The translations under genes and the position numbers were made by a program. A stretch of DNA of 64,000 nt from Bacteroidales bacterium (lineage in GTDB: Bacteria; Bacteroidota; Bacteroidia; Bacteroidales; UBA10428). The notes below the pieces were generated by a model. It was not told where the DNA came from, ran no database searches, and saw only the letters and a program-made list of their open reading frames with translations. How positions within the stretch are numbered: position 1 is the first letter of the stretch; each line of letters starts with the position of its first letter. The stretch is taken from the NCBI GenBank assembly GCA_035299085.1, contig DATGXG010000026.1:10568-74567 (forward strand). Reading direction: 5' to 3'. Below are positions 14,901-44,897 of this stretch, one piece after another.

Positions 14901-15758
14901 TACAAGTGGTCAGTTAACGGCAGAATATTAGCTGCTGATAACGACGACCGCTTTTATTGCCGGGATAGCATGTCTGTTCAACAATTTCTTACAAATGCCG
15001 CAGGATGTGTGGATACTTCAAATGTGCTTTTGCCCGGATTGTTCCCTTCTCCAGTAGTTCAATATGAAAATGTGGAATTTTGCAGGGGTGATTCAGCCAA
15101 AGTAGCATTGGACACGTTCTTCACTGAATACAATTGGTCAAACGGAGATACAACTTCTTTTACATGGGTTTATGAAAATGAACCGCTTTCAGTAAGAGTT
15201 ATGAACGAATTTGGCTGTATTTCAAATGATACAATCAATTATGCTGTTTATCCGCGACCTTATTTTGAGCTGGGTGAAAATGTATCCATTGGCTATACAG
15301 ATACCTATTCACTCATTCAATGCTATTCGGACCCCTATACTTATTTATGGAACGATACAATCGGCTTTTGTTCGAAATCATTTAGCGGAGATAAACTTAA
15401 TATTGGCGACCATAAGGTGAAGCTCACCATTATTAACCAGTATGGTTGTTTTTATTCAGACAGCATTCAAATAGAGGTTTTATTAAGCGTTAAAGATGCT
15501 GCCCTGAATGATAAAATCCTGTTTGTATTTCCGAATCCTGCTGATACCTACACGTCTCTTTATATTAACGGTTTTCTTAACAGTCCCAATACCGTGGTGG
15601 ATGTATTTAATTCGGGCGGCATCCTGGTTGACCATTTTCAATTGAATGTCCCGTCGCCTACCGTTTTTAATTATGATGTTACAAAACTAAGGGGCTTGAA
15701 TATTTTAAGGTTGACTGCTAATGGAAAATCCGTATCGGTAAGATTGATTAAAAACTGA
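12000..15758 (+). CDS. Large secreted FG-GAP/VCBS-repeat protein with a PKD domain and a T9SS C-terminal sorting domain
   Basis: 1252 aa. Signal peptide (LFFSTVCSQAQ), PKD motif (WDFGDGTVSDQLFPVHTFNSPGNYRVTLEASNG), repeated DxDxDGxxD FG-GAP-like motifs (DLDGDQDPD, DMNNDGLNDIV, DYNYDGLTDII, DIDNDNDNDIV, DLDNNGYTD, DISNDGRTDV). An ASPIC/UnbV-like segment (GSKVFIKA...GYEVHFGLGDA...VEILWTSG), Cys-paired Ig-like modules, and a C-terminal VFPNPADTYTSLYING...LRLTANGKSVSVRLIKN. Confidence 0.8.
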   Translation: MRFFHTLVIALLFFSTVCSQAQPSLKIDTIYFPQKEVRKVRISYNGEIWFFTGSPTGELYRITRTGKIENKTGEFASLLSNGLTDFVVPDTNQLIAGTNDNFVFHYSNGTFKNTVTDLGLAPTENHINSLYLTRQILRQNAITFADQIRFGVATNGNAYQGTSFGDKLYKIECYNQLNRSFLSKNDPFLLDIPVPHLCSGLWMSWPVFDNAQYGRPLCGNIDYYQSGSILYSWIGFEKGYVTKTNYDYTYPRYLESQAIRAMADYDDRYVLIAADSGIYYSNTWQDPHKIDLPLGNIRVSDIEVWQGNVYAATEKGLIRLISTNCNDFKISIDQNVQYGDTFNQTKFLFEPVLYGATKRCKWDFGDGTVSDQLFPVHTFNSPGNYRVTLEASNGECRDTVSALAVVFTDHNHVDLKKLINLEVDDYTYPMPVINIADLDGDQDPDLFSSPTSLYNSDGKTTPHFTPIDLVPDSIIGDEPFNSWVYQSLVGDMNNDGLNDIVANTRIFINKGNFRFDVISIDPEEFLQTYVENLLDYNYDGLTDIIIGTDYNLFVYINKGSFRFEKKVLAKYIYETVNGIRWIDIDNDNDNDIVVSGVSSERVFLNQNGEYTSANNTFFDGFPIDRFYAADMDNDRKMDFYFSSGSENFLYKGTNGKPVQYNDTWLTNERNPFFFNNQCSAYNVAFSDLDNNGYTDCIKNTLDNKTNRVFLNQGNMIFVNDTTGCFEIDSIIRENSITAADISNDGRTDVLLWDANDYDSDDFIFLNNTVNSNNWIKFHCFGSRSNINAIGSKVFIKARISNKDTWQYRVIEASVDKYIQNGYEVHFGLGDAEKADTVEILWTSGHHSIYTGLEANKTYNLIEPLIQVADTLVCENVRPFIHLPFCQSVVYEWQKNGLPAESVNNRLKISSPGVYRCVIHYDDFNDTTSSVTIHHLPVSRSEIRFAGDSIFCPGDSALISSITYPGAEYKWSVNGRILAADNDDRFYCRDSMSVQQFLTNAAGCVDTSNVLLPGLFPSPVVQYENVEFCRGDSAKVALDTFFTEYNWSNGDTTSFTWVYENEPLSVRVMNEFGCISNDTINYAVYPRPYFELGENVSIGYTDTYSLIQCYSDPYTYLWNDTIGFCSKSFSGDKLNIGDHKVKLTIINQYGCFYSDSIQIEVLLSVKDAALNDKILFVFPNPADTYTSLYINGFLNSPNTVVDVFNSGGILVDHFQLNVPSPTVFNYDVTKLRGLNILRLTANGKSVSVRLIKN

Positions 15759-15770
15759 AAATTTCAGTAA

Positions 15771-16397
15771 TTAACTGGCCACAAAAGGGCATTTTTTATA
15801 ATACGTTTCATCCTTAAGCTGGGTCACTAAAAATTCGGCCAGGTCAGCGGCACTCACTTTATTACCCGGGGCATCCGCCAGTTCAACAAATAATTTGCGG
15901 CGCGACAATGTCATTTCAATAGTCGGGCACCGTACAATGGTCCAATCAAGGTTGCTGGCCTTAAGCATTTCATACACGTTCTGCCGGGCTTTTGCCTTTA
16001 CGGGTACCATTTTTCGGATCAGCCATCCTGCAAGCCGCGTTTTTAATCCTCTTTTATCTTCTGCTGCCTGCAATCCCCAGCCTGCTATTTCAATATATCT
16101 TTTAATCTTCAGATTCTTCATTACCTTAATCAAATGGGAAACAGCCACGGAATTAATGGGAGGTTCACCCTTTGCAGGCCCCAGTGTGCTTATCACGGCA
16201 TGGCAACCTGTAACCAGTCGCTGAATAGTTGCATAGTTTCTTGCGTTGCCTGTCACCACTTCAACAAGAGGATCGATATTTACTGCTTTTTGAGGGTTCC
16301 TGACAAGCATTCTAACCGGGTATCCCTGTTTGACGAGTTCATCAACCACAAACTTTCCGGTTTTCCCGGTGCCGCCGAGAATCGCTACTTTATACAT
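15771..16397 (-). CDS. NAD(P)H-binding NmrA/atypical-SDR family protein
   Basis: Rossmann motif VAILGGTGKTGKFVV at the N-terminus. I prefer the start MYKVAILGG (16397) to the ORF-track start at 16412. Confidence 0.75.
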   Translation of the reverse strand: MYKVAILGGTGKTGKFVVDELVKQGYPVRMLVRNPQKAVNIDPLVEVVTGNARNYATIQRLVTGCHAVISTLGPAKGEPPINSVAVSHLIKVMKNLKIKRYIEIAGWGLQAAEDKRGLKTRLAGWLIRKMVPVKAKARQNVYEMLKASNLDWTIVRCPTIEMTLSRRKLFVELADAPGNKVSAADLAEFLVTQLKDETYYKKCPFVAS

Positions 16398-16432
16398 TTT
16401 AATTACCTGCACGTATCTGATCTTTAAGAAGA

Positions 16433-17326
16433 TTATAAAACAACAGTGATACCGGCTTCTTCAAGTTCTTCAACCTGTGATTGATTCACTTTGGTCCCGG
16501 TGAGGTTAACAAATTCAAGCTTTGGCAGTTCAAGGAGGTAGGAGATATCGCGGATGGAGTTGTTGGACAGGTTAAGCGATTTTAGATTCCTTAGATTTGA
16601 AAGCGTTTCAATATCTTCTATTTCATTGTCGGATAAATTCAGTTCTTCAAGCTGTGTAAGTTTCCAGAGGGGCGTTATATCTGATATCGAATTTTCTGAA
16701 AGGTCTATCACGATGGCATGAAGGCAGTACTGAATGCCATCGAGATCATTGATTCCTGATTGAGACAATTCAAATTCATCGAGATCTTCAAGATAATATG
16801 TTGGAAAGCCGACATTCAGATCGCCGAAAATTCTCATCTGGACACCTTCATAAAATGAATAGTATCTTTTCTTTGATCCGGAACGGTTAGTTTTTTCTCC
16901 GACGACTTTTCCGCTTGTATTTATGATGGTGAAATTTTCAAGGTTTATATCCCACTCATATACCGGTGAATAATCTATATCCTCATAATTTGCAAGCGTT
17001 GCGGCTATCTCATCAATTTTGCCCAGTCGCAGGATATGCGAATATCTCAGTAATCCGTCATGGTCTCCCGCTGCTGCCAGCCTGTCAATTTCCATACGAT
17101 GAAAGTCGCCCCTGTCAGGATGATACAGCATCATCATCCGGGCAAAATTTTTAGCGTCGTTTCCCGGTTCAAAAGCATCCGATTCACTTATGATTTCAGC
17201 AATCTGTTTAAGGGTGCCATATTGCTGTTCCCTGTATAAGCCAATCAGGGTAACGCTGATTTTATTCAAATTCGAATTCGAATAAGCTTCTTTTATGTTT
17301 TGATACAATTCAGATGTTGTCATCAT
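16433..17326 (-). CDS. Leucine-rich-repeat protein with an N-terminal HPD (J-domain-like) segment
   Basis: 297 aa. The C-terminal third holds about 4 short LRRs (IDLSENSISDITPLWKLTQLEELNLSDNEIEDIETLSNLRNLKSLNLSNNSIRDISYLLELPKLEFVNLTGTKV). The N-terminal region has NFARMMMLYHPDRGD, which resembles the helix II-HPD loop of J domains. No signal peptide. Confidence 0.6.
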   Translation of the reverse strand: MMTTSELYQNIKEAYSNSNLNKISVTLIGLYREQQYGTLKQIAEIISESDAFEPGNDAKNFARMMMLYHPDRGDFHRMEIDRLAAAGDHDGLLRYSHILRLGKIDEIAATLANYEDIDYSPVYEWDINLENFTIINTSGKVVGEKTNRSGSKKRYYSFYEGVQMRIFGDLNVGFPTYYLEDLDEFELSQSGINDLDGIQYCLHAIVIDLSENSISDITPLWKLTQLEELNLSDNEIEDIETLSNLRNLKSLNLSNNSIRDISYLLELPKLEFVNLTGTKVNQSQVEELEEAGITVVL

Positions 17327-17391
17327 TCAGAGAAATCCTTCTTTTTTTAACGACCATGAACTGCGGAAATTGCAATGGGTCATGATTTCTG

Positions 17392-17399
17392 CAAAATTA
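17392..17399 (-). promoter_or_regulatory. Candidate Bacteroidota -7 box (TAATTTTG on the minus strand) upstream of the LRR gene
   Basis: Exact match to TAnnTTTG, 66 nt upstream of the ATG at 17326. Confidence 0.25.
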
Positions 17400-17523
17400 T
17401 TACATTCACGTAAAATTTATCCAAAATAGTTCCTGAAAATCCGCATTTTATAAATTTATAGGGTAAAGTAATATTTTCCGGTCATCAATAAATAGAACAT
17501 TTCACCTAAAACTTCTCCTTTCC

Positions 17524-19803
17524 ATGAAACACAACTACATCTTCGCCTTACTTATCTCAACCCTGTTTAACCTAATTTTTGAATACAACTGTTATTCACA
17601 AACCAAACTTCATGTAGATGCAGAATATATAAAGGATGTTGTTTCGGATATTGCTTCCGACGATTACCAGGGTCGTGAAACCGGTACTGCCGGATGTGTT
17701 ATGGCCGAAGATTATTTTGCTGCCGAACTGCAGAAACTGGGCCTGAAACCAGCCGGTGATTCAGGTTCCTGGTTTTTTAATTATTCAATTCCAAAAGAGG
17801 AGTTTGACCTGACAGCAGGACTTACGATCGACAACAGGTCATTCTTCCAGGGATATAATGAGGATTTTTCAGTAGTTTATAAAAGTGAGCCCGGTGATGT
17901 CCAGGGTGATATTGTTTTCGCCGGTTATGGTATTTATAACCCGGAAAAAAACAGGAATGATTTTGATACGCTTGACCTTAAAAATAAAATAGTTTTAATG
18001 AAGCGAGGTGCCCCGCGTAATGACATACAGTCTTGGATGCCTTCCTGTATCGATTCGGTAAAGGCAGCATACTGTTACGAACACGGTGCTGTGGGAGTGT
18101 TATTTTATGAACCGCTTATTCGCACAAATCAGCGCATTCTGAAACCAACTTTTGGAAATCACCTGGCTATGGTAAGGGTAATTCCCTGTTTCCCTGTGTT
18201 TTCAATTGATGAGCGGGTTGTGCGGTTTATTTTTTCGCAAATGGGACAGTCGTATTACCGCATTAACAACTTGATTGAAACCCAGCCCGAATCCTTTGCA
18301 ACGAAAAGCACCTGTCATATGTCGGCTAGCGGTAAAAAGAACCAGTCGATTCATACCCGCGATGTACTGGGAATGATAAAGGGAACGGACAGGACTCTGA
18401 AAGATGAATTTATCGTTATAGGAGGGCATATTGACCATCTTGGCGCAGACGAACACGGAAAATTATGGAACGGAGCTGATGATAATGCCTCCGGACCTGC
18501 AGTTGCCCTTGGAATTGCCAGGGCTATGATCATGAACAAGTACAAACCCAGGCGGAGTATAATTTTCGCCGCATGGACCGGAGAGGAGATGGGGCTTCTG
18601 GGTTCAAAGGCATGGTGTGACCGCCCAACTGTTGATGCATCAAAGATTGTTGTATATTTCAATCTGGATATGGTAGCCGTAGGAAATGGAAAACTAAATA
18701 TGCCCGGCACTGCTTACGGTCCCGAACTGGCTGATTTCATTAAGGAAAATTTGGACACAGCCCTTCTCAGGAACATCATTTGGAGTGACGGAGGTATTTC
18801 GGGAAGCGATCACAGTAACTTTTTAAATCTTGGAATACCAGCATTTGCAGGGATGACAGCTGGTTCACATCCCGATTATCACCAGCCTGGCGATGATCCT
18901 GAAAAAATAAGTAAACCTGTGCTTCAGTTCACTGGCGATTTTATTGCTGCCTGTGTTACCGCAATTGCGGACAGCCGTTCCGACTTTAACCGCCTGGCAC
19001 GACAGGAGGAAAACCAGATGAGACTTATGTCATTTTCATTCTATCAGCCAATCAGTTTATCATCATGCAATGAAAAATTAAGTGAAACTAATTTCAGACA
19101 GGGACTTGTGAATTTCTCCAAATCACAGCCTTCCGCAGATCAGAATGCAAACTTCATCGGTTTATTAGCGGATCTTGACAGTGCGCTGCAAAAAAATAAC
19201 AACAAGTATGTATTTTCCACAAGTGCCTACGATGCGATGATGACCCGTGAAGGATTGCTTGCGGCTTTCAATCCCGCCGATGTCGGCATGGATGATCTGA
19301 AATTAAAAGTACTTGCAAGCCAGGGATACCGCATTGCCATAGTCGACAGCAAAAATGTAATTTGTACTGATACGGCCAGGATGAGACACTTTTTGACTAT
19401 TTGCCATCAAAACGGCCTGGGTGTAATTCTGAATAACTTACCTGTGCCCTGCCTGGAAGCCATCACATCCGAATCCGTTGATCCGGTGTTGATAATGAAT
19501 TCCGAATTTCTCAGCGACCGGATATTCAGTAATATCAAAGCCAAAGGCCACCTCATCATATTTGCATTGAAAAACAATGATATCATAAACCAGGAAAACA
19601 GAAATTTGGCCAGACTGATTGAACTGGCCGGCGACGATCATATTCTGATTTGTCCTTCGGATCTTGCTCCTGAAGATTTGCGGTACCTCAAAATGTTTGT
19701 CAGGCAGTACTCAAAGTCCGCTAAGGACAAGTCGCTGCAATATAAATTATTGAATGATAATTTCCGTGATTTTGCGGTAAAGTCGATGCAGCCGAATCTT
19801 TAG
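17524..19803 (+). CDS. Secreted M28-family aminopeptidase with a PA domain and a roughly 270-aa C-terminal extension of unknown function
   Basis: 759 aa. Signal peptide. M28 metal-ligand contexts GGHIDHLG, DDNASG, TGEEMGLLGS, NLDMVA and GSDHSNF. Residues from about 490 to the end have no motif I recognise. Confidence 0.8.
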   Translation: MKHNYIFALLISTLFNLIFEYNCYSQTKLHVDAEYIKDVVSDIASDDYQGRETGTAGCVMAEDYFAAELQKLGLKPAGDSGSWFFNYSIPKEEFDLTAGLTIDNRSFFQGYNEDFSVVYKSEPGDVQGDIVFAGYGIYNPEKNRNDFDTLDLKNKIVLMKRGAPRNDIQSWMPSCIDSVKAAYCYEHGAVGVLFYEPLIRTNQRILKPTFGNHLAMVRVIPCFPVFSIDERVVRFIFSQMGQSYYRINNLIETQPESFATKSTCHMSASGKKNQSIHTRDVLGMIKGTDRTLKDEFIVIGGHIDHLGADEHGKLWNGADDNASGPAVALGIARAMIMNKYKPRRSIIFAAWTGEEMGLLGSKAWCDRPTVDASKIVVYFNLDMVAVGNGKLNMPGTAYGPELADFIKENLDTALLRNIIWSDGGISGSDHSNFLNLGIPAFAGMTAGSHPDYHQPGDDPEKISKPVLQFTGDFIAACVTAIADSRSDFNRLARQEENQMRLMSFSFYQPISLSSCNEKLSETNFRQGLVNFSKSQPSADQNANFIGLLADLDSALQKNNNKYVFSTSAYDAMMTREGLLAAFNPADVGMDDLKLKVLASQGYRIAIVDSKNVICTDTARMRHFLTICHQNGLGVILNNLPVPCLEAITSESVDPVLIMNSEFLSDRIFSNIKAKGHLIIFALKNNDIINQENRNLARLIELAGDDHILICPSDLAPEDLRYLKMFVRQYSKSAKDKSLQYKLLNDNFRDFAVKSMQPNL

Positions 19804-19804
19804 G

Positions 19805-19930
19805 ATGAAATCGTTTGAATGAATCGTTTGAATGAAATCGTTTGAGTAACTTCTTTCAAACTCTTTTTCAAACTCTTTTTCAAACTTCTTTCAAACCTTT
19901 TCTTTAAACAGCGAAGCGTTCAAACTTCTT
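19805..19930. repeat. Composite tandem-repeat element A: 3 x ATGA(A)ATCGTTTGA followed by 4 x T(C)TTT(T)TCAAAC, plus degenerate tail copies
   Basis: Seen directly. Left array 19805..19845, right array 19851..19896. Tail copies are CTTTAAAC at 19902..19909 and GTTCAAAC at 19918..19925. The GTTTGAA core of the left units is the reverse complement of the TTCAAAC core of the right units. The element fills the gap between convergent genes. Confidence 0.85.
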
Positions 19931-20432
19931 ATTGGTTTACAGAATTCATCCCCGAACTCATTTCGGGGCTTGCATCCGCATTCCAGGTTTCAAGTTTGAT
20001 TTTAAGCGTGCCGTCAGGCTGCTGTTCCCAGATTGTCAGATATTTACCGGCGTCTTCATTAATTTCATCCGATTGAGGCATGGTGAAACGGATATTGAAT
20101 TTTCCGATTTCAAGGATCATGTTTTCACATGGAACCGCATAGATAGTCTGGACTTCAAAGGATTTTACCTTCATACCGGTTGTGCTCATTTCGACAGTCG
20201 ATTTTCGGATAGCTGGCAGTCCTTCAATCATATCAGCGTTATTGGGCATTGAAATGGCATCTTCGGTATAATAACTGAGTGTTTTTTCAGTATTTCCTTC
20301 CATCATGGCTTTAGCCATCTCCTGGTTAACACGGGTGACTTTTGCCTTGAGATCTTCAGTACTTTGGGCCTGTAATGCTAGAGCTGTCCATCCTAAATAA
20401 ACGACAGCAAGAATCATTGTTTTTTTTTTCAT
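19929..20432 (-). CDS. Secreted SnoaL-like / DUF4440-type (NTF2 fold) protein
   Basis: 167 aa. Signal peptide (MILAVVYLGWTALALQAQS). Has a YYTEDAISMP...IWEQQPDGTLKIKLETWN pattern typical of DUF4440-like proteins. Family call is from memory. Confidence 0.55.
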   Translation of the reverse strand: MKKKTMILAVVYLGWTALALQAQSTEDLKAKVTRVNQEMAKAMMEGNTEKTLSYYTEDAISMPNNADMIEGLPAIRKSTVEMSTTGMKVKSFEVQTIYAVPCENMILEIGKFNIRFTMPQSDEINEDAGKYLTIWEQQPDGTLKIKLETWNADASPEMSSGMNSVNQ

Positions 20433-20519
20433 ATAAGTGGATTTAGTGGTATTAACTCACTAACAAATGTTTTCGTGAATTGATCAATTTTTATGTAACT
20501 TCAATCTTTCAATTACATT

Positions 20520-20948
20520 ATGGAAAACACTATAGCAGAATGTATCCGGTTTGCCAATGAGAACAAGGTTTGTTTCCTGGCTACTGATGAGAATGGTCAG
20601 CCCAGAGTGCGTGCGCTCGGATTCTGGTTTGCCGATGAGACCGGGTTTTATTTTCAAACAGGAATGATTAAGGATCTTTTCAGGCAACTGATCAAAAACC
20701 CGAAAGCAGAAGCATGTTTTTATAAACACGGACCTGATGCCGGTATTACCATGCGCATTTCGGGGGAAACTGAATTCGTAAACGATAAAAGCTTAAAGGA
20801 AAAGGTATTAAATGAACGGCCTTTTCTTAAAGAATTTGGTTTAACTGTCGACAGTCCGGGACTTATTATTTTCCGGATTGCCCATGGAAATGCATTTTTC
20901 TGGACGATGGAAAATAATCTGAAAAAAAAGAAGCTTATTCCGTTCTGA
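20520..20948 (+). CDS. Pyridoxamine 5'-phosphate oxidase-like FMN-binding split-barrel protein
   Basis: 142 aa. Contains NKVCFLATDENGQPRVRALGFWFADETGFYFQTG, typical of the PNPOx-like family. Confidence 0.7.
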   Translation: MENTIAECIRFANENKVCFLATDENGQPRVRALGFWFADETGFYFQTGMIKDLFRQLIKNPKAEACFYKHGPDAGITMRISGETEFVNDKSLKEKVLNERPFLKEFGLTVDSPGLIIFRIAHGNAFFWTMENNLKKKKLIPF

Positions 20949-20961
20949 TTCAAACCGTCAT

Positions 20962-23169
20962 TTAAATCTTCTTTGTACGCAGCCGAAGACTGTTGGAAAC
21001 GACCGAAACAGAACTTAATGCCATTGCAGCGGCGGCAATCATAGGATTCAGCATGATTCCCCACAGAGGGTATAATATCCCGGCTGCAATGGGGATTCCT
21101 ATCAGGTTATAAATAAAGGCCCAGAACAGGTTCTGACGAATTGTGCCGACTGTGTATTTCGATAAACGAATGGCAGCCGGAATCTTGCTGAGATCGGACG
21201 ACATGATTGTCATACCTGCAACATCAATAGCAATATCGGCTCCCTGTGCCATGGCGACGCTTACATCAGCTTCAGCAAGTGCCTGTGAATCGTTCACTCC
21301 GTCACCCACCATAGCCACCACTTTACCCGTTGATTGCAGTTCTTTTATAAAAAAAGCTTTATCCGATGGCATCATATTCGCCCTGTAACGAGTGATACCT
21401 GCTCGTGAAGCTATAACCTTTGCCGTATGATCATTATCTCCTGTGAGCATATATACTTCAGCACCGGTTTTCTGTAATTCAGAGATTGCATCGGCTGTAG
21501 ATGATTTCAGGATATCGGCAAGTCCGATAACCGCAAGAAGCCCGTTTTCGTCTGCAAAAAGCACCACCGTGTTGGCCTCTTCCTGCATGGCATTTATATA
21601 CTGCATCTGTCCTGCACTTATTGGAATTTCCTCATCGGCAAGCAGTTTAATATTTCCTGTAAAAAATGATTTGCCGTCAAACCGTGCTTTGACACCTTTA
21701 CCCGGAAGATTTTCAAAAAAACCCGGTTCACTATATTCTCCTGTTTGTTTTGACAGCGAAGATACAATAGCAGAAGCCAAAGGGTGCGAAGATAATTTTT
21801 CTATAGAAATAAGCAGCCGGGTATAGGCAGGTATGTCCTTTCCTTCTGCAAACCATTTAATGCCGGTTACGGCAGGGTGTCCGACCGTCAGAGTACCTGT
21901 TTTATCCATCACAATGGCATTGATATCCCTTATCCTTTCAAGGCTTTCCGCGTCCTTGATAAGGATTCCGTTCCTGGCTCCTTTTCCCATACCCACCATG
22001 ATGGCAGTTGGTGTGGCTAATCCGAGCGCACATGGACAGGCAATGACAAGCACAGTAACCATGGCCAGAAGTGCCCGTGAAATGTCGCCACCAAAGAACA
22101 TCCAACCGGCAAAGCTCAACAGCGAAATAGTTATAACAACAGGCACGAAAATTCCGGCCACCCTGTCCACTGTTTTTTGCACAGGAGCTTTACTGCCCTG
22201 GGCTTGTTGAACCATTTGAATAATTCTTGAAAGAACGGTTTCGGAACCCACCTGTTTCGCAATCATTACGAAGCTCCCGTTCAGATTCATTGTGCCGGCA
22301 AAAACTCTGTCACCCTTTGTTTTGTCTACAGGCATCGATTCACCCGTGATTGTGCTTTCGTCAATTGAGGAGGTGCCTGAGAAGAATTCGCCGTCAACCG
22401 GAATTTTGTCGCCGGGTTTCACCCGAAGTCGGTTTTCATGCCTGACAAGGGATACGGGTACTGTTTTTTCATTTCCCTGTTCGTCGAGCATCACGGCCAG
22501 GTCGGGTTGTAATCCCATTAATTTCCGTATGGCAGAAGAAGTCTTTGATTTGGCTCTTTCTTCAAGGACTTTACCAATAAGAATAAAAGCTATTACAACG
22601 GCTGAGGCCTCATAATACACGTGCGGATGTAATCCCCTTGAGTGCCAGAAATGCGGATAGAAAGTGTTGAAAAGACTGAAAAGAAAGGCGATCCCGGTGC
22701 TCAAAGCAACCAGCGTATCCATATTGGCCTGCCCATGCCGTGCAAGCCGGAACGCGTTAATGAAAAAATTCCTGCCAAAAAAAACAAGAACAGGCAGGGT
22801 AAGTACAAGCATAATATAGTTGGCAAAAGGAACTGACATGAAAAACATGGAAATAACCATTACGGGAAATGCCAGTGCCAGTGCACCTGTCATATTGAAA
22901 AGCAGCTGCCTGTAGTGACTTTGTTGTTTTTCTTCGGCGCTCTCAGTCTTGTCTTCTTCAATGATGAGATCGTATCCTATCGAACGGATGGCTGATTGAA
23001 GTAAAGTGGCATCAACAGGCTCCTTAAACTCTATAACTGCTGACGAATTGGCATAGTTCACTGCTGCGCTGGCTACACCGGGCTGACGCTTCAGAGTTCT
23101 CTCCACATTCAGAGCGCACGAGGCACAGCTCATGCCTTCGACAGGATACGTTTTTGTAATTGATTTCAT
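20962..23169 (-). CDS. copA: Copper-translocating P1B-type ATPase
   Basis: 735 aa. N-terminal HMA domain with GMSCASCA, membrane CPC motif ([11 protein letters not shown]), DKTGTLT, TGD and GDGVNDS. Confidence 0.92.
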
Positions 23170-23182
23170 AGGTGACTACAGG

Positions 23183-23308
23183 CTATCCAAAAATCCTGCC
23201 AAGCCCAAACAATACGGCAAGCCATATCAAACCTTTAACCAGGAAGAAAAGAAATCCTATAAGTCCGATTCGTTTAAACCAATTGAAGGCAGATTTTTTA
23301 AAATGCAT
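23183..23308 (-). CDS. Possible 41-aa single-TM small protein upstream of copA
   Basis: Manual translation gives MHFKKSAFNWFKRIGLIGFLFFLVKGLIWLAVLFGLGRIFG. It has a basic N-terminus followed by one hydrophobic helix. It ends 13 nt before the copA start. No homology evidence. Confidence 0.25.
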   Translation of the reverse strand: MHFKKSAFNWFKRIGLIGFLFFLVKGLIWLAVLFGLGRIFG

Positions 23309-23319
23309 GAAAACATTTT

Positions 23320-25935
23320 TCAGGGAATAACAACTGTTGGCCCTGTAATGTTTATTTCATCACTTAGTGTATTTTTATCACCAGCAACCGGTTGTTTACC
23401 ACCGGCATATACAATGAATTTGCCGGCTTCTTCAACACGATTGTATTCTTCATTGATAACCGAAAAACTTTCAGCTTTCAAAACGAGTTCAACTTTTTTG
23501 GTTTCTCCGGCTTTAAGCATCACTCTTTTAAATCCGGCCAGTGCTTTAAGCGGAACAGGAACTGATGCGCCCTGGTTGGTCACAAATACTTCAACGACTT
23601 CTTCACCATCCATCTTTCCTGAATTGGTAACGTCAACAGATATCTTTACATCAGATCCGGCCGGCGATGATTCAGGAATGGTAAGATTTTTATATGTGAA
23701 TGTGGTATAGCTTAATCCGTAGCCAAAACCCCATAACGGTTCGCCTTTAAAATAACGGTATGTTCTGCCTTCCATGCGGTAATCCTTGAAGTCAGGCAAA
23801 TCGTTAACCGATTTATAGAAGGTAACGGGCAATCGGCCAGCCGGGTTGAAATCACCGGACAGCATGCGGGCAAGGGCTGTACCTGTGGCTTCACCGGGGT
23901 AAAATGCCTGGATAATTGCCGGAACGTTTTCATTTTCCCAATTCATAGCCATGGCACTGCCGCTAAAATTAACGTAAATAATGGGTTTGCCTGTTTTTTT
24001 GAGCTCTTTCAGCAGGTCTTCCTGAACAGAAGGAAGATTAATGTGAGTGCGGTCACCGTGTGAAAACCCGTCAATGCTGAGCGGCATTTCTTCACCTTCG
24101 AGACTGGAAGAAATACCACCGCAGAATACGATCACATCTGCCTTTTTGGCAGCATCAACCGCTTCTTTTTTGTAATCCTTTGATGTTTCAACCCATTCGA
24201 ATTTTGCTGAAGGTTCAACTGCATTGTTCCACCAGAAGGGTACCACAGTAAATGTAACTTCAAGATTATATTTCTGGCCTTTTACAAGTTCCACGAGATT
24301 TTTTCCGGGATCTTTCCCGTTAATTTTTACACGGGTATTACCTCCGAATGTAAAAGTACCTGATTTATCTGGAATAAGAATTCCTGTCCATCTAACTGAA
24401 AAACTATCTTCCATCTGGTTATCAACCGGTGAGCGCATCCAGTAAAAATTCACTGAGCTGTCAACACGCACAAATGCAGGCTGGCCTTTCAATCCTTCTT
24501 CACTGTAGTATTCAGCTTTAAGACCATTTTTAAGCGCTCCGTTTTCATCATGAAATAAATTCTTATACGGTACCGGCTGGTAATTGGTATAAATGCCGGG
24601 TACTATGGGACAACCGGCGGAATAAAGCACATTTTGCTTTCCCATCCTGGTTCTCAGTCCTGTGAGCGGTGTGATGGGAACTACAGGTTCCCCGTTGTAG
24701 TTAGCAATCAGAATGTCAAAGTTGTCGGCATTAGGTCCGATAAGAGCGATTTTCTTTCCTTTTTTCAATGGAAGGATGCCATCGTTTTTGAGCAGTACAA
24801 GTGATTTCTCGGCTGCTCTTTCCGCGAGTTGCAAATGTTCTTTGGAGCCTACAACTGAAAAGGGTATTTTGGAATAAGGAACCATGATATCCGGATCGAA
24901 CATTCCCAGTTTGATTCTGGCTTCAAAAAGCCTGAGAAGTGATGTGTTCAGGTCTTTTTCATTGATCACGCCGTTTTGTATGGCCGAATCAAGGTTGCTT
25001 ACAAGAAAACTGGCAGGAGTTTCACAATTCAGGTCTGTACCGGTGGAAACCGACCATCCCCAGGCACGGGATGAGTTCTCAACCACATGATGGGCGTTTT
25101 TTGTATAGAAATCACTGATGGCACCGCAATCCGATGTGATATAACCGGTAAAGCCGAATTCCTTTCTGAGAATGTTACTGAGAAGCAGGTCTGAGCCGCA
25201 GCATGGCTTATCACGGAACCTGTTATAGGCACACATTACCGATTGTACATTGGCTTCTTTCACCGAAGCTTTGAATGCAGGTAGGTAAGTATCATACAGG
25301 TCGCGGTCATTAACAAACACATTATCGACATGGCGGCTGTATTCCGGTCCGCTATGAACAGCATAATGCTTGGCCGTTGCAATGGTTTTAAGATAGTGAG
25401 GGTCATTTCCCTGTAATCCTTTAATGAAATTTACAGCCATTCTGCCTGTCAGATATGGATCTTCTCCGTAGGTTTCCTGGCCTCTTCCCCAACGGGGATC
25501 GCGGAATATATTGATGTTCGGCGACCAGAAGGTAAGTCCGGTATAAATGCTGTGCACATTGTTTTTAAGAAAATTATGATGCTTGGCCCTTGCTTCATCG
25601 GAAATAGCGGTAGCCACAGTGAACATCAGTTCTTCATCAAAGGTAGCTGCAAGACCAATAGCCTGTGGAAACACTGTGGCCTTACCGGCTCTTGCCACGC
25701 CGTGAAGGCATTCATTCCACCAATCATACTGCGGAATACCAAGACGCGGAATGGCTTCACTATGGTTGAAAAACTGGGTTACTTTTTCCTGCAAAGTAAG
25801 TCGCGAAACAAGGTCATATGCTCTTTCCTCAACCGGCAAAGACGGATCCTGGAAAGGATATTGATAGGTGGTTTGTCCGATGACAGTGAAAATTGCCGGA
25901 AGTATTAAACACAAGGTGAAAAGTATTCTGCGCAT
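23320..25935 (-). CDS. Secreted glycoside hydrolase family 3 beta-glucosidase with an inserted PA14 domain
   Basis: 871 aa. Signal peptide. GH3 N-terminal domain with nucleophile context GYITSDCGAI. PA14-like insert (LKAEYYSEEGLKGQPAFVRVDSSVNFYW). C-terminal fibronectin-like domain. Confidence 0.9.
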   Translation of the reverse strand: MRRILFTLCLILPAIFTVIGQTTYQYPFQDPSLPVEERAYDLVSRLTLQEKVTQFFNHSEAIPRLGIPQYDWWNECLHGVARAGKATVFPQAIGLAATFDEELMFTVATAISDEARAKHHNFLKNNVHSIYTGLTFWSPNINIFRDPRWGRGQETYGEDPYLTGRMAVNFIKGLQGNDPHYLKTIATAKHYAVHSGPEYSRHVDNVFVNDRDLYDTYLPAFKASVKEANVQSVMCAYNRFRDKPCCGSDLLLSNILRKEFGFTGYITSDCGAISDFYTKNAHHVVENSSRAWGWSVSTGTDLNCETPASFLVSNLDSAIQNGVINEKDLNTSLLRLFEARIKLGMFDPDIMVPYSKIPFSVVGSKEHLQLAERAAEKSLVLLKNDGILPLKKGKKIALIGPNADNFDILIANYNGEPVVPITPLTGLRTRMGKQNVLYSAGCPIVPGIYTNYQPVPYKNLFHDENGALKNGLKAEYYSEEGLKGQPAFVRVDSSVNFYWMRSPVDNQMEDSFSVRWTGILIPDKSGTFTFGGNTRVKINGKDPGKNLVELVKGQKYNLEVTFTVVPFWWNNAVEPSAKFEWVETSKDYKKEAVDAAKKADVIVFCGGISSSLEGEEMPLSIDGFSHGDRTHINLPSVQEDLLKELKKTGKPIIYVNFSGSAMAMNWENENVPAIIQAFYPGEATGTALARMLSGDFNPAGRLPVTFYKSVNDLPDFKDYRMEGRTYRYFKGEPLWGFGYGLSYTTFTYKNLTIPESSPAGSDVKISVDVTNSGKMDGEEVVEVFVTNQGASVPVPLKALAGFKRVMLKAGETKKVELVLKAESFSVINEEYNRVEEAGKFIVYAGGKQPVAGDKNTLSDEINITGPTVVIP

Positions 25936-25985
25936 TGCTTTTTTATTTTAGTTTGATAACATCAAATCTAAACATTTTATGCTTT

Positions 25986-26114
25986 AAGCGCAAGAATCCA
26001 AACTATGATCGCATCGCGATGGCTATCGAATATAATAGTCATCATTTCAAAGAGCAAGCCGATCTCGACCAGGTGGCATCCATTGTAAACCTGAGTGAAC
26101 CTTTAAACCTTTAA
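25986..26114 (+). pseudogene. Remnant of an AraC-family HTH domain (first helix-turn-helix only), truncated by repeat element B
   Basis: The frame starting at 25986 reads KRKNPNYDRIAMAIEYNSHHFKEQADLDQVASIVNLSEPLNL*. This matches the AraC-family pattern (hydrophobic-x-x-Y-I-x-x-H-F-x-x-x-I/L-x-L-x-x-L/V-A-x-x-x-x-L/M-S). There is no upstream start or N-terminal domain, and the frame dies inside the CTTTAAAC repeats. Confidence 0.35.
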
Positions 26115-26145
26115 ACCTTTAAACATTGGAACCTTTAAACCCTTG
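26097..26145. repeat. Repeat element B: GAAC-CTTTAAAC x3 in tandem plus one spaced copy
   Basis: Seen directly. CTTTAAAC at 26101..26108, 26109..26116, 26117..26124 and 26133..26140, with GAAC preceding at 26097 and 26129. Confidence 0.8.
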
Positions 26146-26253
26146 TTTTAGTGTATAGTCTGGTCCGACCCCGGAAAAAAAACATTTGCATCCTCTATTG
26201 TTTCGTTATAATTTCACGCAAATAAAATCAGAAAAAAGGAAAAGGGGCGGCAG

Positions 26254-28029
26254 ATGAAAAACGGACAGGGGTATACAAAAATAATCAATTGGTTTTCAGA
26301 TCGTTTTAATCACAGGCAGCAAATGTATGTGTTTAGCCTGTTCATTGGCATTGTCAGTGGGCTTGCCGCGGTGCTGCTTAAAAACACGGTTCATTACACT
26401 CACCAGTTTGTTCTTAAGTATGGTGGCTATTTCCAGATCAACTTCCTTTACCTGGCCTTTCCGATGCTGGGAATCCTGCTTACCGTCTTATATGTAAAGT
26501 ACCTGGTAAAAGATGAAATGGGTCACGGAATAACCAAAGTTCTCTATTCTATTTCAAAAAAGGGAGGTTTTCTAAGGCCTCATAACAGCTATTCTTCCAT
26601 TATTGCTTCAACACTGACAGTGGGTTTCGGAGGATCTGTCGGACTTGAATCGCCTATTGTGGTTACCGGGTCCTCCATGGGATCGAGCCTCGGAAGGCTT
26701 TTCGGCATGAATTACAAATCCATTACAACACTTATTGGCTGTGGTGCTGCAGGCGCAGTTGCCGGTATCTTCAAAGCCCCTGTAGCCGGTGTTGTTTTTG
26801 CACTGGAAGTGCTGATGCTTGATATCGGTGTGTGGTCGATTATTCCGCTATTGATATCGGCTGTAACAGGTGCCACAATATCTTACCTGTTCCTTGATCC
26901 CGGCGTTTCGCTGCATTATCCTGTTCAGGGCAATTTCAACCTGCACAATATACCTCTTTATATCGTTCTCGGTCTTTTTGCAGGTATCGTTTCGCTGTAT
27001 TTTACAAGGATGACCTTTTCAATTGAAAAACTCTTTGCAAAAATCGGCAGCCGGACTACACGGTGGATTATCGGCGGCCTGGTGCTCGGATTACTTATTC
27101 TTTTTCTCCCTTTACTTTACGGTGAAGGTTATGACATCCTGAATGATTTTCTCGAAGGTAATATCAGTTCAATCACCCACGGGAGCATATTCAGCGGCCA
27201 TGAAGGCAGTTTATGGTATTTTGTTGTCTTCATGGTGCTCGTACTTTTGTTCAAGCCAATAGCCATGACTGCCACAACCGGTGCCGGCGGGGTGGGGGGA
27301 ATATTCGCTCCTTCCATGTTCATGGGCGGTTTCACGGGGTACCTGGCTGCAAAACTCCTTAACCAAATCCACTTTATCAACGTACCGGAACAGAATTTCA
27401 TCCTGAGCGGCATGGCCGGATTAATGGCCGGCGTCATGCATGCCCCGCTTTTTGCCATCTTTCTCATTGCTGAGATCACAGGTGGTTATGTGCTGTTTAT
27501 CCCGTTAATGATTACCTCTACAGTTTCCTTTATTACCATCCGTTATTTCGAACCTCATTCCATTTACACACACCGGTTGGCAACGCGCGGCGAACTGATC
27601 ACTCACAACAAAGACAAAGCTATACTCACCCTTTTGGACATGGATAAGCTGATCGAAAAGGATTTCGTGCCTGTTACCCCGGCTGATTCACTAGGCAAGC
27701 TCGTAAAGGCTATTTCCCGTTCAAAAAGAAACTTGTTCCCTGTAATTACCGGCAAAAACATCCTGGTAGGTGTTGTATTGCTCGACAGCATCCGCCATAT
27801 CATTTTCAACAGTGAAATGTACAACCAGGTTTTTGTGCGCGACCTGATGCAGCCTCCTCCCACTCACATTTCGCCGGGTGATTCAATGGAAAGCGTCATG
27901 AAGAAATTCGAGGATAATGAAGCCTGGAACCTTCCGGTTGTAAACAACGGAGAATACATCGGCTTTTTATCCAAGTCGAAATTATTCTCCTATTACCGCA
28001 ACTGGTTGATAGAAATTTCGGAGGATTAG
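26254..28029 (+). CDS. ClC-family chloride channel / H+-Cl- antiporter with a C-terminal CBS pair
   Basis: 591 aa. About 10 TM helices. ClC selectivity motifs GGSVGLESP and GVGGIFAPS. The C-terminal tandem CBS region starts at about residue 455. Confidence 0.9.
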   Translation: MKNGQGYTKIINWFSDRFNHRQQMYVFSLFIGIVSGLAAVLLKNTVHYTHQFVLKYGGYFQINFLYLAFPMLGILLTVLYVKYLVKDEMGHGITKVLYSISKKGGFLRPHNSYSSIIASTLTVGFGGSVGLESPIVVTGSSMGSSLGRLFGMNYKSITTLIGCGAAGAVAGIFKAPVAGVVFALEVLMLDIGVWSIIPLLISAVTGATISYLFLDPGVSLHYPVQGNFNLHNIPLYIVLGLFAGIVSLYFTRMTFSIEKLFAKIGSRTTRWIIGGLVLGLLILFLPLLYGEGYDILNDFLEGNISSITHGSIFSGHEGSLWYFVVFMVLVLLFKPIAMTATTGAGGVGGIFAPSMFMGGFTGYLAAKLLNQIHFINVPEQNFILSGMAGLMAGVMHAPLFAIFLIAEITGGYVLFIPLMITSTVSFITIRYFEPHSIYTHRLATRGELITHNKDKAILTLLDMDKLIEKDFVPVTPADSLGKLVKAISRSKRNLFPVITGKNILVGVVLLDSIRHIIFNSEMYNQVFVRDLMQPPPTHISPGDSMESVMKKFEDNEAWNLPVVNNGEYIGFLSKSKLFSYYRNWLIEISED

Positions 28030-28030
28030 T

Positions 28031-28098
28031 AGCCCCGGCCTTAAGGCCGGGGACTATAAATCCGGGTCATCCATTGCCCCCGGCCTTAAGGCCGGGGC
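28031..28098. repeat. Twin perfect 20-nt palindromes CCCCGGCCTTAAGGCCGGGG (probable bidirectional terminator hairpins)
   Basis: Seen directly at 28033..28052 and 28078..28097, separated by 25 nt. They lie between the convergent ClC and DUF4389-like genes. Each can form a 10-bp GC-rich stem if the hairpin loop forms within the central TTAA. Confidence 0.8.
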
Positions 28099-28105
28099 TA
28101 TTGAA

Positions 28106-28690
28106 CTAAGCCTTTCCGTTAAACGGCGGATACTGATCGGTCAGAAATGCAATGTAAAGATTTACCCGTGTATTCCATCTCATGAGTCCGGTGACATATT
28201 CATGAAATACGGCAGGATACTTACCTGTGAAAAGAACAGCAAACCACGAGATGAAAACAATTACCATAGTGGCGATGGTTCTGAAAAATAATAAGAATCC
28301 ATGTGGAATCATAACATACAGCCAGCCCAGGAAAAGACGAAGGAGAAGCAAGACCCTGCTTATTTTTTCGGGATATTCCAGGTTGAAATTCAGGTTCTCG
28401 TCCTGAACATCCAGGCCAAAACCGGGATAACCGTCAGAAAGGTTCATCATTGCCGTGTTCACCCTAAGGTTCCAACGGTTGAAACCAACCTGGTAATCAA
28501 ACATGGTTTTGGGATATTTCCCTGTGAAGAGAACGATCCAGAAAGCTACAAAGGTCAGGATTGCAGACCAGATACCAAGGAAAAACAGGATAATTCCGTG
28601 AGGAATCGCAATGTACAGCCAGCCGAAAAAGGTGCGTAAAAGCAATTGGAGCCGCGAATAGCGGTCCTGTGTTTTAATTGTTAATTCCAT
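28106..28690 (-). CDS. DUF4389-like membrane protein with an internal tandem duplication
   Basis: 194 aa. Two homologous halves, each LLLR-F-GWLY--IPHG--LFF ... LFTGKYP ... RWN-RVN ... YP-F. Family name is from memory. Confidence 0.65.
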   Translation of the reverse strand: MELTIKTQDRYSRLQLLLRTFFGWLYIAIPHGIILFFLGIWSAILTFVAFWIVLFTGKYPKTMFDYQVGFNRWNLRVNTAMMNLSDGYPGFGLDVQDENLNFNLEYPEKISRVLLLLRLFLGWLYVMIPHGFLLFFRTIATMVIVFISWFAVLFTGKYPAVFHEYVTGLMRWNTRVNLYIAFLTDQYPPFNGKA

Positions 28691-28811
28691 GGAATGAGAT
28701 TTAAGTGGTTGATATACTAAATGTAAGGAATTATTAAAAATATGATGCTGCTGTTGGTTAATATCTCATAAACAATTGCAATTTTATTTTTTAACTCATT
28801 GGCAAAACCAT

Positions 28812-28819
28812 TACTTTTG
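28812..28819 (+). promoter_or_regulatory. Candidate Bacteroidota -7 box TACTTTTG upstream of glyA
   Basis: Exact TAnnTTTG match 19 nt before the ATG at 28838. It lies inside the longer ORF-track reading frame that starts at 28799, which argues for the shorter start. Confidence 0.3.
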
Positions 28820-28837
28820 AAACTAAAATTTACATCC

Positions 28838-39208: not shown

Positions 39209-39331
39209 GTGACTAGTGACTGGTGACTGGTGACTGGTGACTGGTGAAGGCCGGGGCTATAGGTATCCGGTATCCAGTATTCAGTATCCAGTATCCAGTA
39301 TCCGGCATCCGGCATCCGGTATCTTTTTTTT
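39209..39331. repeat. Composite tandem-repeat element D: about 5.5 x GTGACTG, spacer AGGCCGGGGCTATAG, about 8.7 x GTATCCR, then T8
   Basis: Seen directly. Heptamer array 1 at 39209..39247, spacer 39248..39262, heptamer array 2 at 39263..39323, T-run 39324..39331. ACTGG in array 1 is complementary to CCAGT in array 2. This gives 5-bp helices separated by 2x2 mismatches. Confidence 0.85.
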
Positions 39332-40470: not shown

Positions 40471-40658
40471 AAATGGTTCCAAATAGTTCCAAATAGTTCC
40501 AAATGGTTCCAAAGTGGTTTAAACGTGGTTCCAAATGGTTCCAAATGGCTCCAAAGTGGTTTAAACGTGGTTCCAAATGGTTCCAACAAGGTAACCTTGA
40601 AACAACCTTGAAACAACCTTGAAACAACCTTGAAACAACTTTGAAACAACTTTGAAAC
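40471..40658. repeat. Composite tandem-repeat element E: decamer array AAATGGTTCC (with a 42-nt higher-order duplication) followed by 6 x AAC(C/T)TTGAAAC
   Basis: Seen directly. Decamer-based array 40471..40584, containing two 42-nt super-units at 40501..40542 and 40543..40584. 11-mer array 40593..40658. Together they fill the whole convergent gap between the AI-2E gene and the cyclase gene. Confidence 0.85.
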
Positions 40659-40664
40659 AAATTT

Positions 40665-44803: not shown

Positions 44804-44897
44804 AGTTTCATGTTGTTTCATATGTTTCAAATTGTTTCAAATTGTTCTGAAACTACTTTGAAACTAAATGAAACCATATGAAACAACTTTGAAACAT
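44804..44897. repeat. Composite tandem-repeat element F: 5 x GTTTCA-containing units, then 5 x TGAAAC-containing units, forming a long imperfect hairpin
   Basis: Seen directly. GTTGTTTCATATG (44812..44824) pairs perfectly with CATATGAAACAAC (44875..44887). Inner GTTTCA/TGAAAC blocks also pair. The element lies between convergent efp and fabI. Confidence 0.85.

Follow-up and report, generated by a model that had tools for sequence, protein, structure and literature searches.

Facing tandem repeat arrays fill a convergent intergenic gap of a Bacteroidales bacterium: a mosaic element with a predicted RNA hairpin for both genes

Short tandemly repeated repetitive (STRR) sequences, said to have been described originally by Mazel et al. 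in 1990, belong to a known class of intergenic repeats. In filamentous cyanobacteria they are 7-bp tandem repeats, which can form intergenic hairpins and for which a role in transcript stability was suggested (PMC2670836). The long simple sequence repeats (LSSR) of Mrazek et al. (2007), as far as PMC4679880 describes them, are short tandem arrays found mostly between genes. In many prokaryotic genomes no periodic DNA is more abundant than intergenic heptamer-type repeats, whose function is stated in surveys to be unknown (PMC6344855). Here we analyse Element A, a repeat element of contig DATGXG010000026.1 of a Bacteroidales bacterium (assembly GCA_035299085.1), located in a stretch of 64,000 nucleotides, which we call the window. 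Element A consists of two facing tandem arrays with complementary cores and fills the gap between two converging genes. We suggest, holding the odds to be about even, that it is a fast-turnover, repeat-built RNA hairpin at the 3' end, which would serve both genes and whose sequence would be free to turn over.

Other described systems are also relevant. Rehm et al. (2015; PMC4692102) reported the G-rich heptamers GGGAATC in Xanthomonas and GGGGA(C/T)T in Nostoc. Their G-rich strand is the coding strand at 0-50 nt from a stop codon or overlapping it, and the non-coding strand just upstream of starts. Some of these heptamers form convergent inverted pairs, RNA-seq transcripts start or stop there more than at control repeats, and the effects were attributed to G-quadruplexes (PMC4692102). 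Arrays of TAACTGA occur in Beggiatoaceae, Cyanobacteria and five Bacteroidetes, with other heptamer arrays in the same gaps (MacGregor 2015, PMC4679880). They are absent at the same site in close relatives and lie mostly just upstream of starts, where a role in translation was proposed (PMC4679880). In our scan, TAACTGA x4 is found in more than 120 stretches of species-representative genomes (loci L071-L150). Its hosts also include Poribacteria, Verrucomicrobia, Planctomycetes, Desulfobacula, Pyrinomonadaceae and Victivallaceae metagenome-assembled genomes, a range wider than that described in 2015. Repetitive extragenic palindromic (REP) sequences and bacterial interspersed mosaic elements (BIME) have roles in mRNA stabilisation and termination. 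The REP-derived elements named REPINs are mobilised by REP-associated tyrosine transposases (RAYT; PMC3116915).

The host of Element A is an uncultured, Prolixibacteraceae-like member of Bacteroidales, and the assembly analysed (G000) comprises 5.26 Mb in 67 contigs with 42.5% G+C. The genes of an M28 peptidase (+ strand) and of a DUF4440 protein (- strand) converge on a gap of 125 bases, of which repeats take up all but about 4. The features of the locus are as follows.

17524..19803, + strand: gene of a peptidase of 759 aa with PA and M28 domains (open reading frame list; Pfam PF04389 at 1.3e-39)
19794..19804, no strand: degenerate proto-unit GAATCTTTAGG, which resembles the array unit GAATCGTTTGAAT and overlaps the peptidase stop codon (a period-27 row of Tandem Repeats Finder begins at 19794; sequence)
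19805..19845, no strand: left arm, three tandem Q-type units ATGAA(A)TCGTTTGA, with GTTTGA core and spacer ATGAAATC (Tandem Repeats Finder)
19846..19850, no strand: loop GTAAC, 5 nt, between the arms (sequence; apical loop in the minimum free energy structures)
19851..19896, no strand: right arm, four tandem units TTCTTTCAAAC / TCTTTTTCAAAC, complement of the P type, which is GTTTGA with a purine spacer; no G present (Tandem Repeats Finder)
19897..19909, no strand: degenerate fifth unit CTTTTCTTTAAAC, which contains CTTTAAAC; T-rich stretch after the main stem on the + strand (sequence)
19910..19925, no strand: single 16-nt R-type unit AGCGAAGCGTTCAAAC of the family GAAGGCTTCGCTGTTT / AAACAGCGAAGC... 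(sequence; arrays elsewhere in the genome)
19929..20432, - strand: gene of a DUF4440 (ketosteroid-isomerase-like) protein of 167 aa, stop codon at 19929-19931 (open reading frame list; Pfam PF14534)

The peptidase gene ends with TAG at 19801-19803, and a single base G (19804) separates it from the left array. This array reads ATGAAATCGTTTGA / ATGAATCGTTTGA / ATGAAATCGTTTGA (period 13-14, 3.0 copies, score 75) and has the composition A14 C3 G9 T15. The right array reads TTCTTTCAAAC / TCTTTTTCAAAC / TCTTTTTCAAAC / TTCTTTCAAAC (period 12, 4.2 copies, score 75), or TYCTTTTTCAAAC x4 in short form. Head-to-tail short units of about 5-16 nt in at least 3 copies, as in the LSSR/STRR class, are present in both. 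An earlier note on this DNA had described facing tandem arrays that fill the convergent gap, which the sequence and the repeat finder bear out almost letter for letter, and complementary cores, which is exact: GTTTGAA is the reverse complement of TTCAAAC. Its two claims on the tail do not hold. It had taken CTTTAAAC (19902-19909) as a link to another repeat of the window, element B; this 8-mer, a part of the degenerate fifth unit, is found 266 times in the genome, so the link carries no meaning. The second tail motif was thought to run into the minus-strand gene. It is GTTCAAAC at 19918-19925, the end of the 16-nt unit AGCGAAGCGTTCAAAC and hence of another genome-wide repeat family, and it stops 3 nt short of the DUF4440 stop codon.

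Nor is Element A a local curiosity, as the same note had treated it; it belongs, as one copy, to a repeat system that spans the genome, comprises many families and has a fixed polarity. Tandem Repeats Finder, run on the whole assembly, gave 1,641 rows, which merge into 1,201 short tandem arrays; the commonest periods are 7, with 335 arrays, and 8, with 223. Genes for the genome-wide statistics were called crudely as longest open reading frames, and the statistics on adjacent array pairs are independent of these calls. About 9% of the genome lies outside long open reading frames and holds 859 of the arrays (72%). The arrays draw on a limited vocabulary of units, which come back at many unlinked loci (60 arrays have AAATCGT, 49 have AACAGACT, 31 ACCAGTC and 28 AATGTGCT). 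Arrays are carried by 27% of convergent, 16% of co-directional and 11.5% of divergent gaps. The median distance from a stop codon to the first array is 9 nt in co-directional and 4-5 nt in convergent gaps, and arrays in divergent gaps lie 65-82 nt away from starts. In convergent gaps with at least two arrays, the arrays make up a median of 76% of the gap, and in half of these gaps other sequence amounts to 30 nt or less. With about 4 nt outside its repeats, Element A leaves no room for any other 3' signal in its gap.

The window itself holds further examples. A solo tandem array at 26098-26141 begins at a stop codon or a few bases from it. Four more facing pairs, at 39209-39323, 40471-40660, 44805-44896 and 52888-52978, have the complementary cores ACTGG/CCAGT, GGTT/AACC, GTTTCA/TGAAAC and CACAGAG/CTCTGTG, respectively, and all start at or near a stop codon. 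We also considered whether the assembly breaks at arrays. Contig ends lie at arrays in 16 of 134 cases vs about 8% expected, which is only a weak enrichment.

The arrays follow a strict polarity. In gaps with two arrays the left one has G>C and the right one C>G in 65 co-directional and 44 convergent cases, and the reverse order occurs in 2 and 0, respectively (109 vs 2). Longer strings of arrays read GGC, GCC or GGCC. Single families are oriented in the same way (AATGTGCT on the left 9:0 and its complement on the right 12:0; ACGATTT on the left 14:2 and AAATCGT on the right 13:1), and so are neighbours without complementarity (45 vs 2). Solo arrays track the nearer gene boundary: the G-type is near the left one in 92 cases vs 40, and the C-type near the right one in 106 vs 35. 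In convergent gaps the solo counts are 22:4 (G-type, left) and 21:3 (C-type, right). When the first array lies within 15 nt after a stop codon, G exceeds C in the sense strand of the gene 309 times vs 43, and array-free gaps have no GC skew after stops. Element A obeys the rule with both arms: the left arm has G9/C3 on the + strand, and the right arm, with G4/C19 on the + strand, is G-rich on the sense strand of the DUF4440 gene. The same polarity is found in 700 kb from six congeners (31 vs 3). It is also found in 418 kb of cyanobacterial loci, which were fetched by the TAACTGA x4 scan (G-to-C pairs 16 vs 0; stop-adjacent arrays 36 vs 11).

This placement is that of the Xanthomonas and Nostoc heptamers, and in Element A, too, the G-rich strand by each stop codon is the coding one. 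However, GTTTGA-type units have no G-runs and are unable to form quadruplexes; a quadruplex takes at least 4 runs of at least 3 G, and there is no GGG run anywhere in 19805-19925. As the polarity holds across dozens of non-quadruplex families, the quadruplex cannot be its general cause. Hence, the polarity is not new in kind; what is new is its presence in dozens of families that cannot form quadruplexes, GTTTGA included, and in Bacteroidales.

Several possible origins of the polarity were rejected. A supply of back-up stop codons is not the main cause: the G>C bias stays when both strands have equal numbers of stop-containing frames (48 vs 12) and when the antisense has more of them (26 vs 9), and the commonest family follows genes in its stop-free orientation, ACGATTT. 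The direction of transcription does not set it either, since single-array strings in co-directional gaps are, relative to the direction of the genes, G-type in 109 cases and C-type in 100, and it is the nearer boundary that decides. Background composition is rejected at stops, where the skew of array-free gaps is near 0, and may contribute before starts. Over about 20 nt before start codons the sense strand has little G, even where arrays are absent (GC skew about -0.2, G+C 27-31%). Such sequence fits the Shine-Dalgarno-independent initiation known for Bacteroidota. The Rho gene product is present in this genome, and cyanobacteria, where the same rule holds, are not known to have Rho; a model based on Rho utilisation (rut) sites fails to predict the observed G-to-C order of arrays.

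The G-rich strand of the arrays also self-folds better as RNA (mean -6.5 vs -2.5 kcal/mol; 587 vs 32 arrays), as is expected from G-U pairing. The rule may then be restated, as an interpretation, in terms of RNA: the RNA leaving a stop codon would be the foldable strand and the RNA approaching a start the unfoldable one. One may go further and regard the polarity as a general mechanism shared across phyla, which we consider improbable. One option for it would be an RNA-structure code at gene boundaries, with self-folding G/U-rich RNA after stops, unfoldable A/C-rich RNA before starts, and facing arrays as the bidirectional form. Another option would be an active polar process that installs arrays with inward G-strands, e.g. 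3'-end-directed repeat synthesis at breaks.

Within this system Element A belongs to the GTTTGA/TCAAAC family. We defined a paired locus as a GTTTGA cluster followed by a TCAAAC cluster within 40 nt; there are 30 such loci in the whole assembly, and the reverse order does not occur (0). The 6-nt core is constant among them and the spacer varies, with periods of 7 to 16 nt. The spacer is purine-rich in class P (GTTTGA-AGAAGA), ATGAAATC in class Q (GTTTGA-ATGAAATC), AGGCTTCGCC in class R (GTTTGA-AGGCTTCGCC) and a single base in the heptamers (e.g. GTTTGAG). The heptamer members have fully complementary arms. Long-unit members usually pair different classes, with P facing Q at 7 loci and P facing R at 3, and with Q-Q and R-R at 0. 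Element A has the commonest combination, a Q arm (GAAATCGTTTGAAT-type) facing a P arm (TCTTTTTCAAAC-type), with one R unit at the end.

Its Q-type unit is arrayed at 12 other loci (13 in all), and near-identical mosaics lie at C24:251659, C31:55987, C53:36171, C27:51128, C64:58745 and C2:72415. The first three of these end with an R-type unit, and several Q/P loci terminate in AGCGAAGC. The R-type unit AGCGAAGCGTTCAAAC is itself arrayed at C17:124100, C38:76264 and C2:34915. Since the mosaic recurs at unlinked loci, Element A is a copy of a dispersed composite design and not the product of local slippage alone. At C2:34915-35177 and C45:21-178 the junction CCGTTTGAACTAATTAAACTTCTTTTTCAAAC is identical, and one of the two lies at a contig start, so a recent duplication or an assembly break within the repeat may be seen there.

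Could the constant core be a protein-binding site? Element A would then be a DNA-level array of convergent sites, bound at GTTTGA/TCAAAC by a nucleoid-associated factor, a transposase or recombinase, or a polar roadblock. The core is indeed invariant over at least three spacer classes, periods from 7 to 16 nt and 30 loci, and its orientation is strict (30 vs 0). The same core is arrayed with other spacers in a patchy set of species. Genome G028, from another family of the same order, has 95 matches to a pattern of three TCAAAC cores spaced 10 nt apart, as in the decamers TCAAACCATT / TCAAACTATT; the core thus recurs in a distant lineage with other spacers, and most congeners lack it. We nevertheless find this explanation very unlikely. 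Dozens of unrelated families (AAATCGT, AACAGACT, ACCAGTC, AATGTGCT etc.) follow the same placement and polarity, so that dozens of proteins would be needed, and cyanobacteria have the polarity with other units. No candidate protein was identified, and the conserved core could equally be the part that pairs in the hairpin.

The recurrent order of Q, P and R units, with the G-rich arms always facing inward, resembles the design of REP/BIME elements, and this is a resemblance and not evidence of membership. Both are short extragenic hairpin repeats at 3' ends, mosaics of a few motifs in fixed orientation, and variable between strains. However, the arms of Element A are tandem arrays of variable copy number instead of single 20-40-nt palindromes, and conserved termini are absent. 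REP sequences are imperfect palindromes of 20-40 nt with a conserved end motif, and the units of Element A are 11-16 nt long and not individually palindromic. Among the 30 family members no shared termini, conserved flanks or target duplications were seen, and their starts follow differing stop-codon contexts. A miniature inverted-repeat transposable element is ruled out by the absence of common terminal inverted repeats and target-site duplications.

Mobile hairpins of another kind are present in this genome. The gene at C24:144706-145272 scores as a RAYT (NF047646, 101 bits, cut-off 80), and a REP family of many copies, GCTAGGCGAAGTC-N3-GACTTCGTC, flanks it on both sides (C24:144311-145731). 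The flanks of the six Y1 genes of the genome carry other repeat families (GCTAGGCGAAGTC..., AACCACGGAGTGGTT..., TACCATAATGCCG..., AGCCACGGAGTGGCG...). GTTTGA arrays were not found beside any of these six genes. Four IS200/Y1-type genes, at C38:36700-37161, C11:90042-90710, C5:6900-7346 and C23:50097-50441, each lie within their own dispersed hairpin repeats, of the families TACCATAATGCCGCTCC, AGCCACGGAGTGGCGACATCTTTGTAGTAAT and AACCACGGAGTGGTTGAA plus AATAGCGCCGGCTGAAAGCCGGTGTT. Hence, several REP/RAYT-like systems coexist with the tandem arrays.

Folding of the gap RNA, which the earlier note had put forward as a check, predicts a segmented hairpin on each strand, with minimum free energies of -25.5 kcal/mol (+) and -28.7 kcal/mol (-). 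The z-score of the gap alone is -3.2 on each strand against mononucleotide shuffles; with flanks included and dinucleotide shuffles it is -2.3 (+) and -2.9 (-). As a pairing control we reverse-complemented the right arm, which keeps both arrays and removes the complementarity between the arms. This arm flip weakens the fold from -24.4 to -16.6 kcal/mol. The pattern of Element A is far beyond chance. The predicted stem is composed of 7-bp core helices GUUUGAA:UUCAAAC and 4-bp helices GAAA:UUUC with internal loops between them, and forms an AU-rich segmented hairpin of about 95 nt. Of the two arms folded alone as RNA, the left one has -8.7 kcal/mol in sense orientation to the peptidase gene (antisense 0.0), and the right one -7.9 kcal/mol in sense orientation to the DUF4440 gene (antisense -2.7). 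Folded as DNA, Element A gives -16.9 kcal/mol (z -2.25). Rfam 15 has no match in the window, and the best sub-threshold score at the site is 12.9 bits vs a gathering threshold of 100.

Each left core has one preferred right-core partner, with a pairing probability of 0.86-0.88 on the + strand and 0.70-0.80 on the - strand. One register makes up about 0.87 (+) and 0.70-0.80 (-) of the ensemble, and shifts by one unit are 1.4-2.5 kcal/mol worse. The earlier note had expected a register-flexible segmented hairpin; the segmented hairpin is predicted on both strands, while the flexibility is real but modest and a single register dominates. These nearby registers, together with the indels expected in arrays of this size, are what would speak for a contingency locus, a tunable switch in which slipped-strand changes of unit number alter the expression of a flanking gene. 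It is hardly probable at all. Both genes end at the element, which is thus outside any promoter, 5' untranslated region and reading frame; about 1,200 such arrays lie beside genes of all kinds; and the relative L018, described below, shows replacement of the sequence instead of a change in unit number.

The place between convergent genes and the hairpin predicted on both strands recall bidirectional intrinsic terminators, and on the + strand the main stem is followed by the T-rich CCTTTTCTTT / CCUUUUCUUU. Element A could accordingly be read as a classical Rho-independent bidirectional terminator that is repetitive by chance. We regard this as highly improbable. Such terminators have a short and stable GC-rich stem-loop, about 5-14 bp in length, which Element A lacks; its stem is long, AU-rich and segmented, and its 7-bp helices have only 2 G-C pairs each beside the 4-bp A-U/G-C helices. 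The CCTTTTCTTT tract has no counterpart on the - strand, which lacks a U-tract, and the class as a whole has no U-tract signature. A consensus scan found no terminator at the site, and 15000-30000 has 13 terminator-like sites, no more than the 15.7 expected from shuffles. The scan of the site and the lack of T-run enrichment in the class speak against a canonical terminator, in line with the earlier note's statement that this is no classical terminator stem.

Folding is not special to Element A. Convergent gaps fold much more strongly than shuffles: the median z is -3.2 in gaps free of arrays, 63% of which lie below -2, and -3.05 and -5.5 in gaps with one and with at least two arrays, respectively. 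Divergent gaps fold like shuffles (median z +0.2). Complementary cores of at least 6 nt are present in 34% of adjacent array pairs vs 3.6% of random pairs. The complementary adjacent pairs fold at -39 kcal/mol and their arm-flipped controls at -19. The arm lengths correlate weakly, and in complementary pairs only (rho 0.29, p 0.009). A polar growth of arrays, with purer units at the 3' end of the G-strand, is not significant (0.829 vs 0.813, p = 0.065).

Homologues of the DUF4440 protein are 92% identical (L018) and 89% identical (P0002). The comparison at the site of Element A is made with the one close relative that was found, L018, a 3.4-kb metagenome contig of the Joint Genome Institute, in which the genes have the same convergent arrangement and the peptidase is 86% identical over 759 aa. 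L018 keeps the last codons and the stop of the peptidase, and the array is absent. Its gap of 132 nt vs 125 nt here has no sequence in common with Element A. It contains two direct copies of about 40 nt that hold the hairpin GCGAAGTC-TGT-GACTTCG, followed by the repeat hairpin AAGCGTAGTT...AACTACGCTT. This gap folds at -52.8 / -54.9 kcal/mol (z -5.2 / -5.3), stronger than Element A. Its first unit is a dispersed repeat of the present genome, where its 12-mers occur about 60 times, and it is the REP that flanks the RAYT gene at C24:144706-145272 on both sides. Therefore, the same gap holds arrays in one lineage and REPs in the other, with similar length and with hairpins in both. The earlier note had tied absence of the arrays in relatives to a random low-complexity remnant. 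The arrays are indeed absent, but since their replacement folds strongly as a repeat hairpin, such a remnant does not follow.

Further comparisons come from more distant genomes. In G010 and G014, whose orthologues are 52-53% identical, the neighbouring gene is co-directional and the spacer is a plain 73 nt free of arrays. The peptidase gene is absent from the repeat-rich congeners G001, G019 and G023. A search for the orthologous locus over genome contigs gave no match, the exact-sequence look-up of the DUF4440 protein found no record, and all relatives that a metagenome scan with DUF4440 brought up were 30-57% identical.

Array density is similar across the genus, 14-22 per 100 kb, and the vocabularies differ between congeners. 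The unit (AAATCGT)3 is abundant in 4 of 41 genomes and has a single match in a fifth. TCAAAC arrays are abundant in about seven, most of which are not (AAATCGT)3-rich and one of which is from another family of the order. From these sequences, array-building appears genus-wide and its units species-specific. In G014, where the (AAATCGT)3 vocabulary is absent, seven copies of the octamer CAAATCAG form an array upstream of the peptidase orthologue (L007, 3905-3950). In G019, nine contigs carry 35 forward and 3 reverse copies of (AAATCGT)3. With arbitrary contig orientation so strong a strand bias would not be expected; it may reflect a gene-strand or replication bias, or ordered contigs.

With intergenic enrichment, dispersed unit families and turnover at the orthologous site (in the single close relative L018), Element A is an ordinary member of the known LSSR/STRR class of intergenic tandem repeats. 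That class has units of 7-11 nt, mostly heptamers, in several dispersed intergenic families per genome and sometimes with hairpins. Element A differs in its 11-16-nt units, in the constant 6-nt core with variable spacers, and in its mosaic arms, which are not pure heptamer. It resembles the TAACTGA arrays in dispersed intergenic placement, patchy phylogeny and absence at the same site in close strains, but lies between two stop codons.

The turnover is open to another explanation, which is the main rival to the hairpin reading. Element A could be selfish or neutral filler, produced by slippage, by ectopic recombination or transposase-assisted dispersal, and by quasi-palindrome template switching; its hairpin would be a by-product tolerated after stops. 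The complete replacement of the sequence between relatives 8-14% apart in protein is what filler would give, as are a vocabulary of its own in each species at the similar density noted above, and the plain, co-directional, array-free 73-nt spacer of G010 and G014. The genome also encodes a bona fide RAYT as well as IS200-type Y1 transposases, flanked by REP families of their own; its intergenic regions are therefore demonstrably colonised by mobile hairpins. In addition, two-thirds of the adjacent pairs lack complementarity, and a U-tract signature is absent. Still, tolerance leaves the near-absolute polarity (109 vs 2; 309 vs 43) unexplained and does not account for the roughly 10-fold excess of complementary neighbours. 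Array-free gaps have no skew after stops. Array-free convergent gaps are equally structured, which suggests that a hairpin is needed there, and Element A has nothing else to supply it. We consider filler possible but rather unlikely.

We suggest the following mechanism for the hairpin reading. Element A is a mosaic intergenic element, made from three recurring unit types with the GTTTGA/TCAAAC core. The G-rich, self-foldable strand of each arm reads away from the adjacent gene. Either transcript would have the G/U-rich array first after the stop codon and then its C/A-rich partner, closing into the segmented hairpin of about 95 nt. This hairpin may act as a 3'-end structure for both convergent genes, by stopping transcripts from either side in a non-canonical way, by blocking 3'-exonucleases, or by both, in a mode likened to that of REP/BIME elements and not to a terminator with GC stem and U-tract. 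The sequence itself would be disposable, turned over by slippage, by dispersal between intergenic regions and by template switching between the arms. At the locus itself, what would persist is a filler about 125-130 nt long that folds strongly. We infer that the RNA hairpin is the selected property, which would end or stabilise transcripts, and folding looks like a shared requirement of convergent gaps. In favour of this reading are also the membership in a genome-wide family, the position of arrays at 3' ends, the exchange of sequence under a kept structure in L018, the polarity, which fits a reading at the level of RNA, and the precedent of the Xanthomonas and Nostoc heptamers.

The following points weigh against this mechanism. 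Non-complementary neighbours, two-thirds of all adjacent pairs, fold no better than their flipped controls and have the same polarity (45 vs 2); therefore hairpin formation cannot be the whole story. Template switching could give rise to complementarity in the absence of selection, and the effect of G content cannot be told apart from that of foldability. The stems are AU-rich helices of 7 and 4 bp split by internal loops, and the U-rich tail is on the + strand only. Across the genome, 8% of facing arrays are followed by at least 6 T in 8 nt, which equals the background of 8%. Finally, the strong fold of the L018 gap could reflect that REPs are hairpins by nature, and it comes from one close relative.

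Element A is a miniature of the general array design. Its genome is a dense and clean example outside cyanobacteria and Xanthomonas, where hairpin pairs are often the sole content of convergent gaps. In annotation, gaps of this kind are to be treated as built from repeats and specific to the strain, and short-read assemblies may break at them. If the hairpins end or stabilise transcripts, they would explain how converging genes are insulated in a lineage with few canonical terminators. The polarity reported for G-quadruplex repeats would then not depend on quadruplexes. If the polarity has a mechanism common to several phyla, it would address the question of what intergenic heptamer-type repeats are for.

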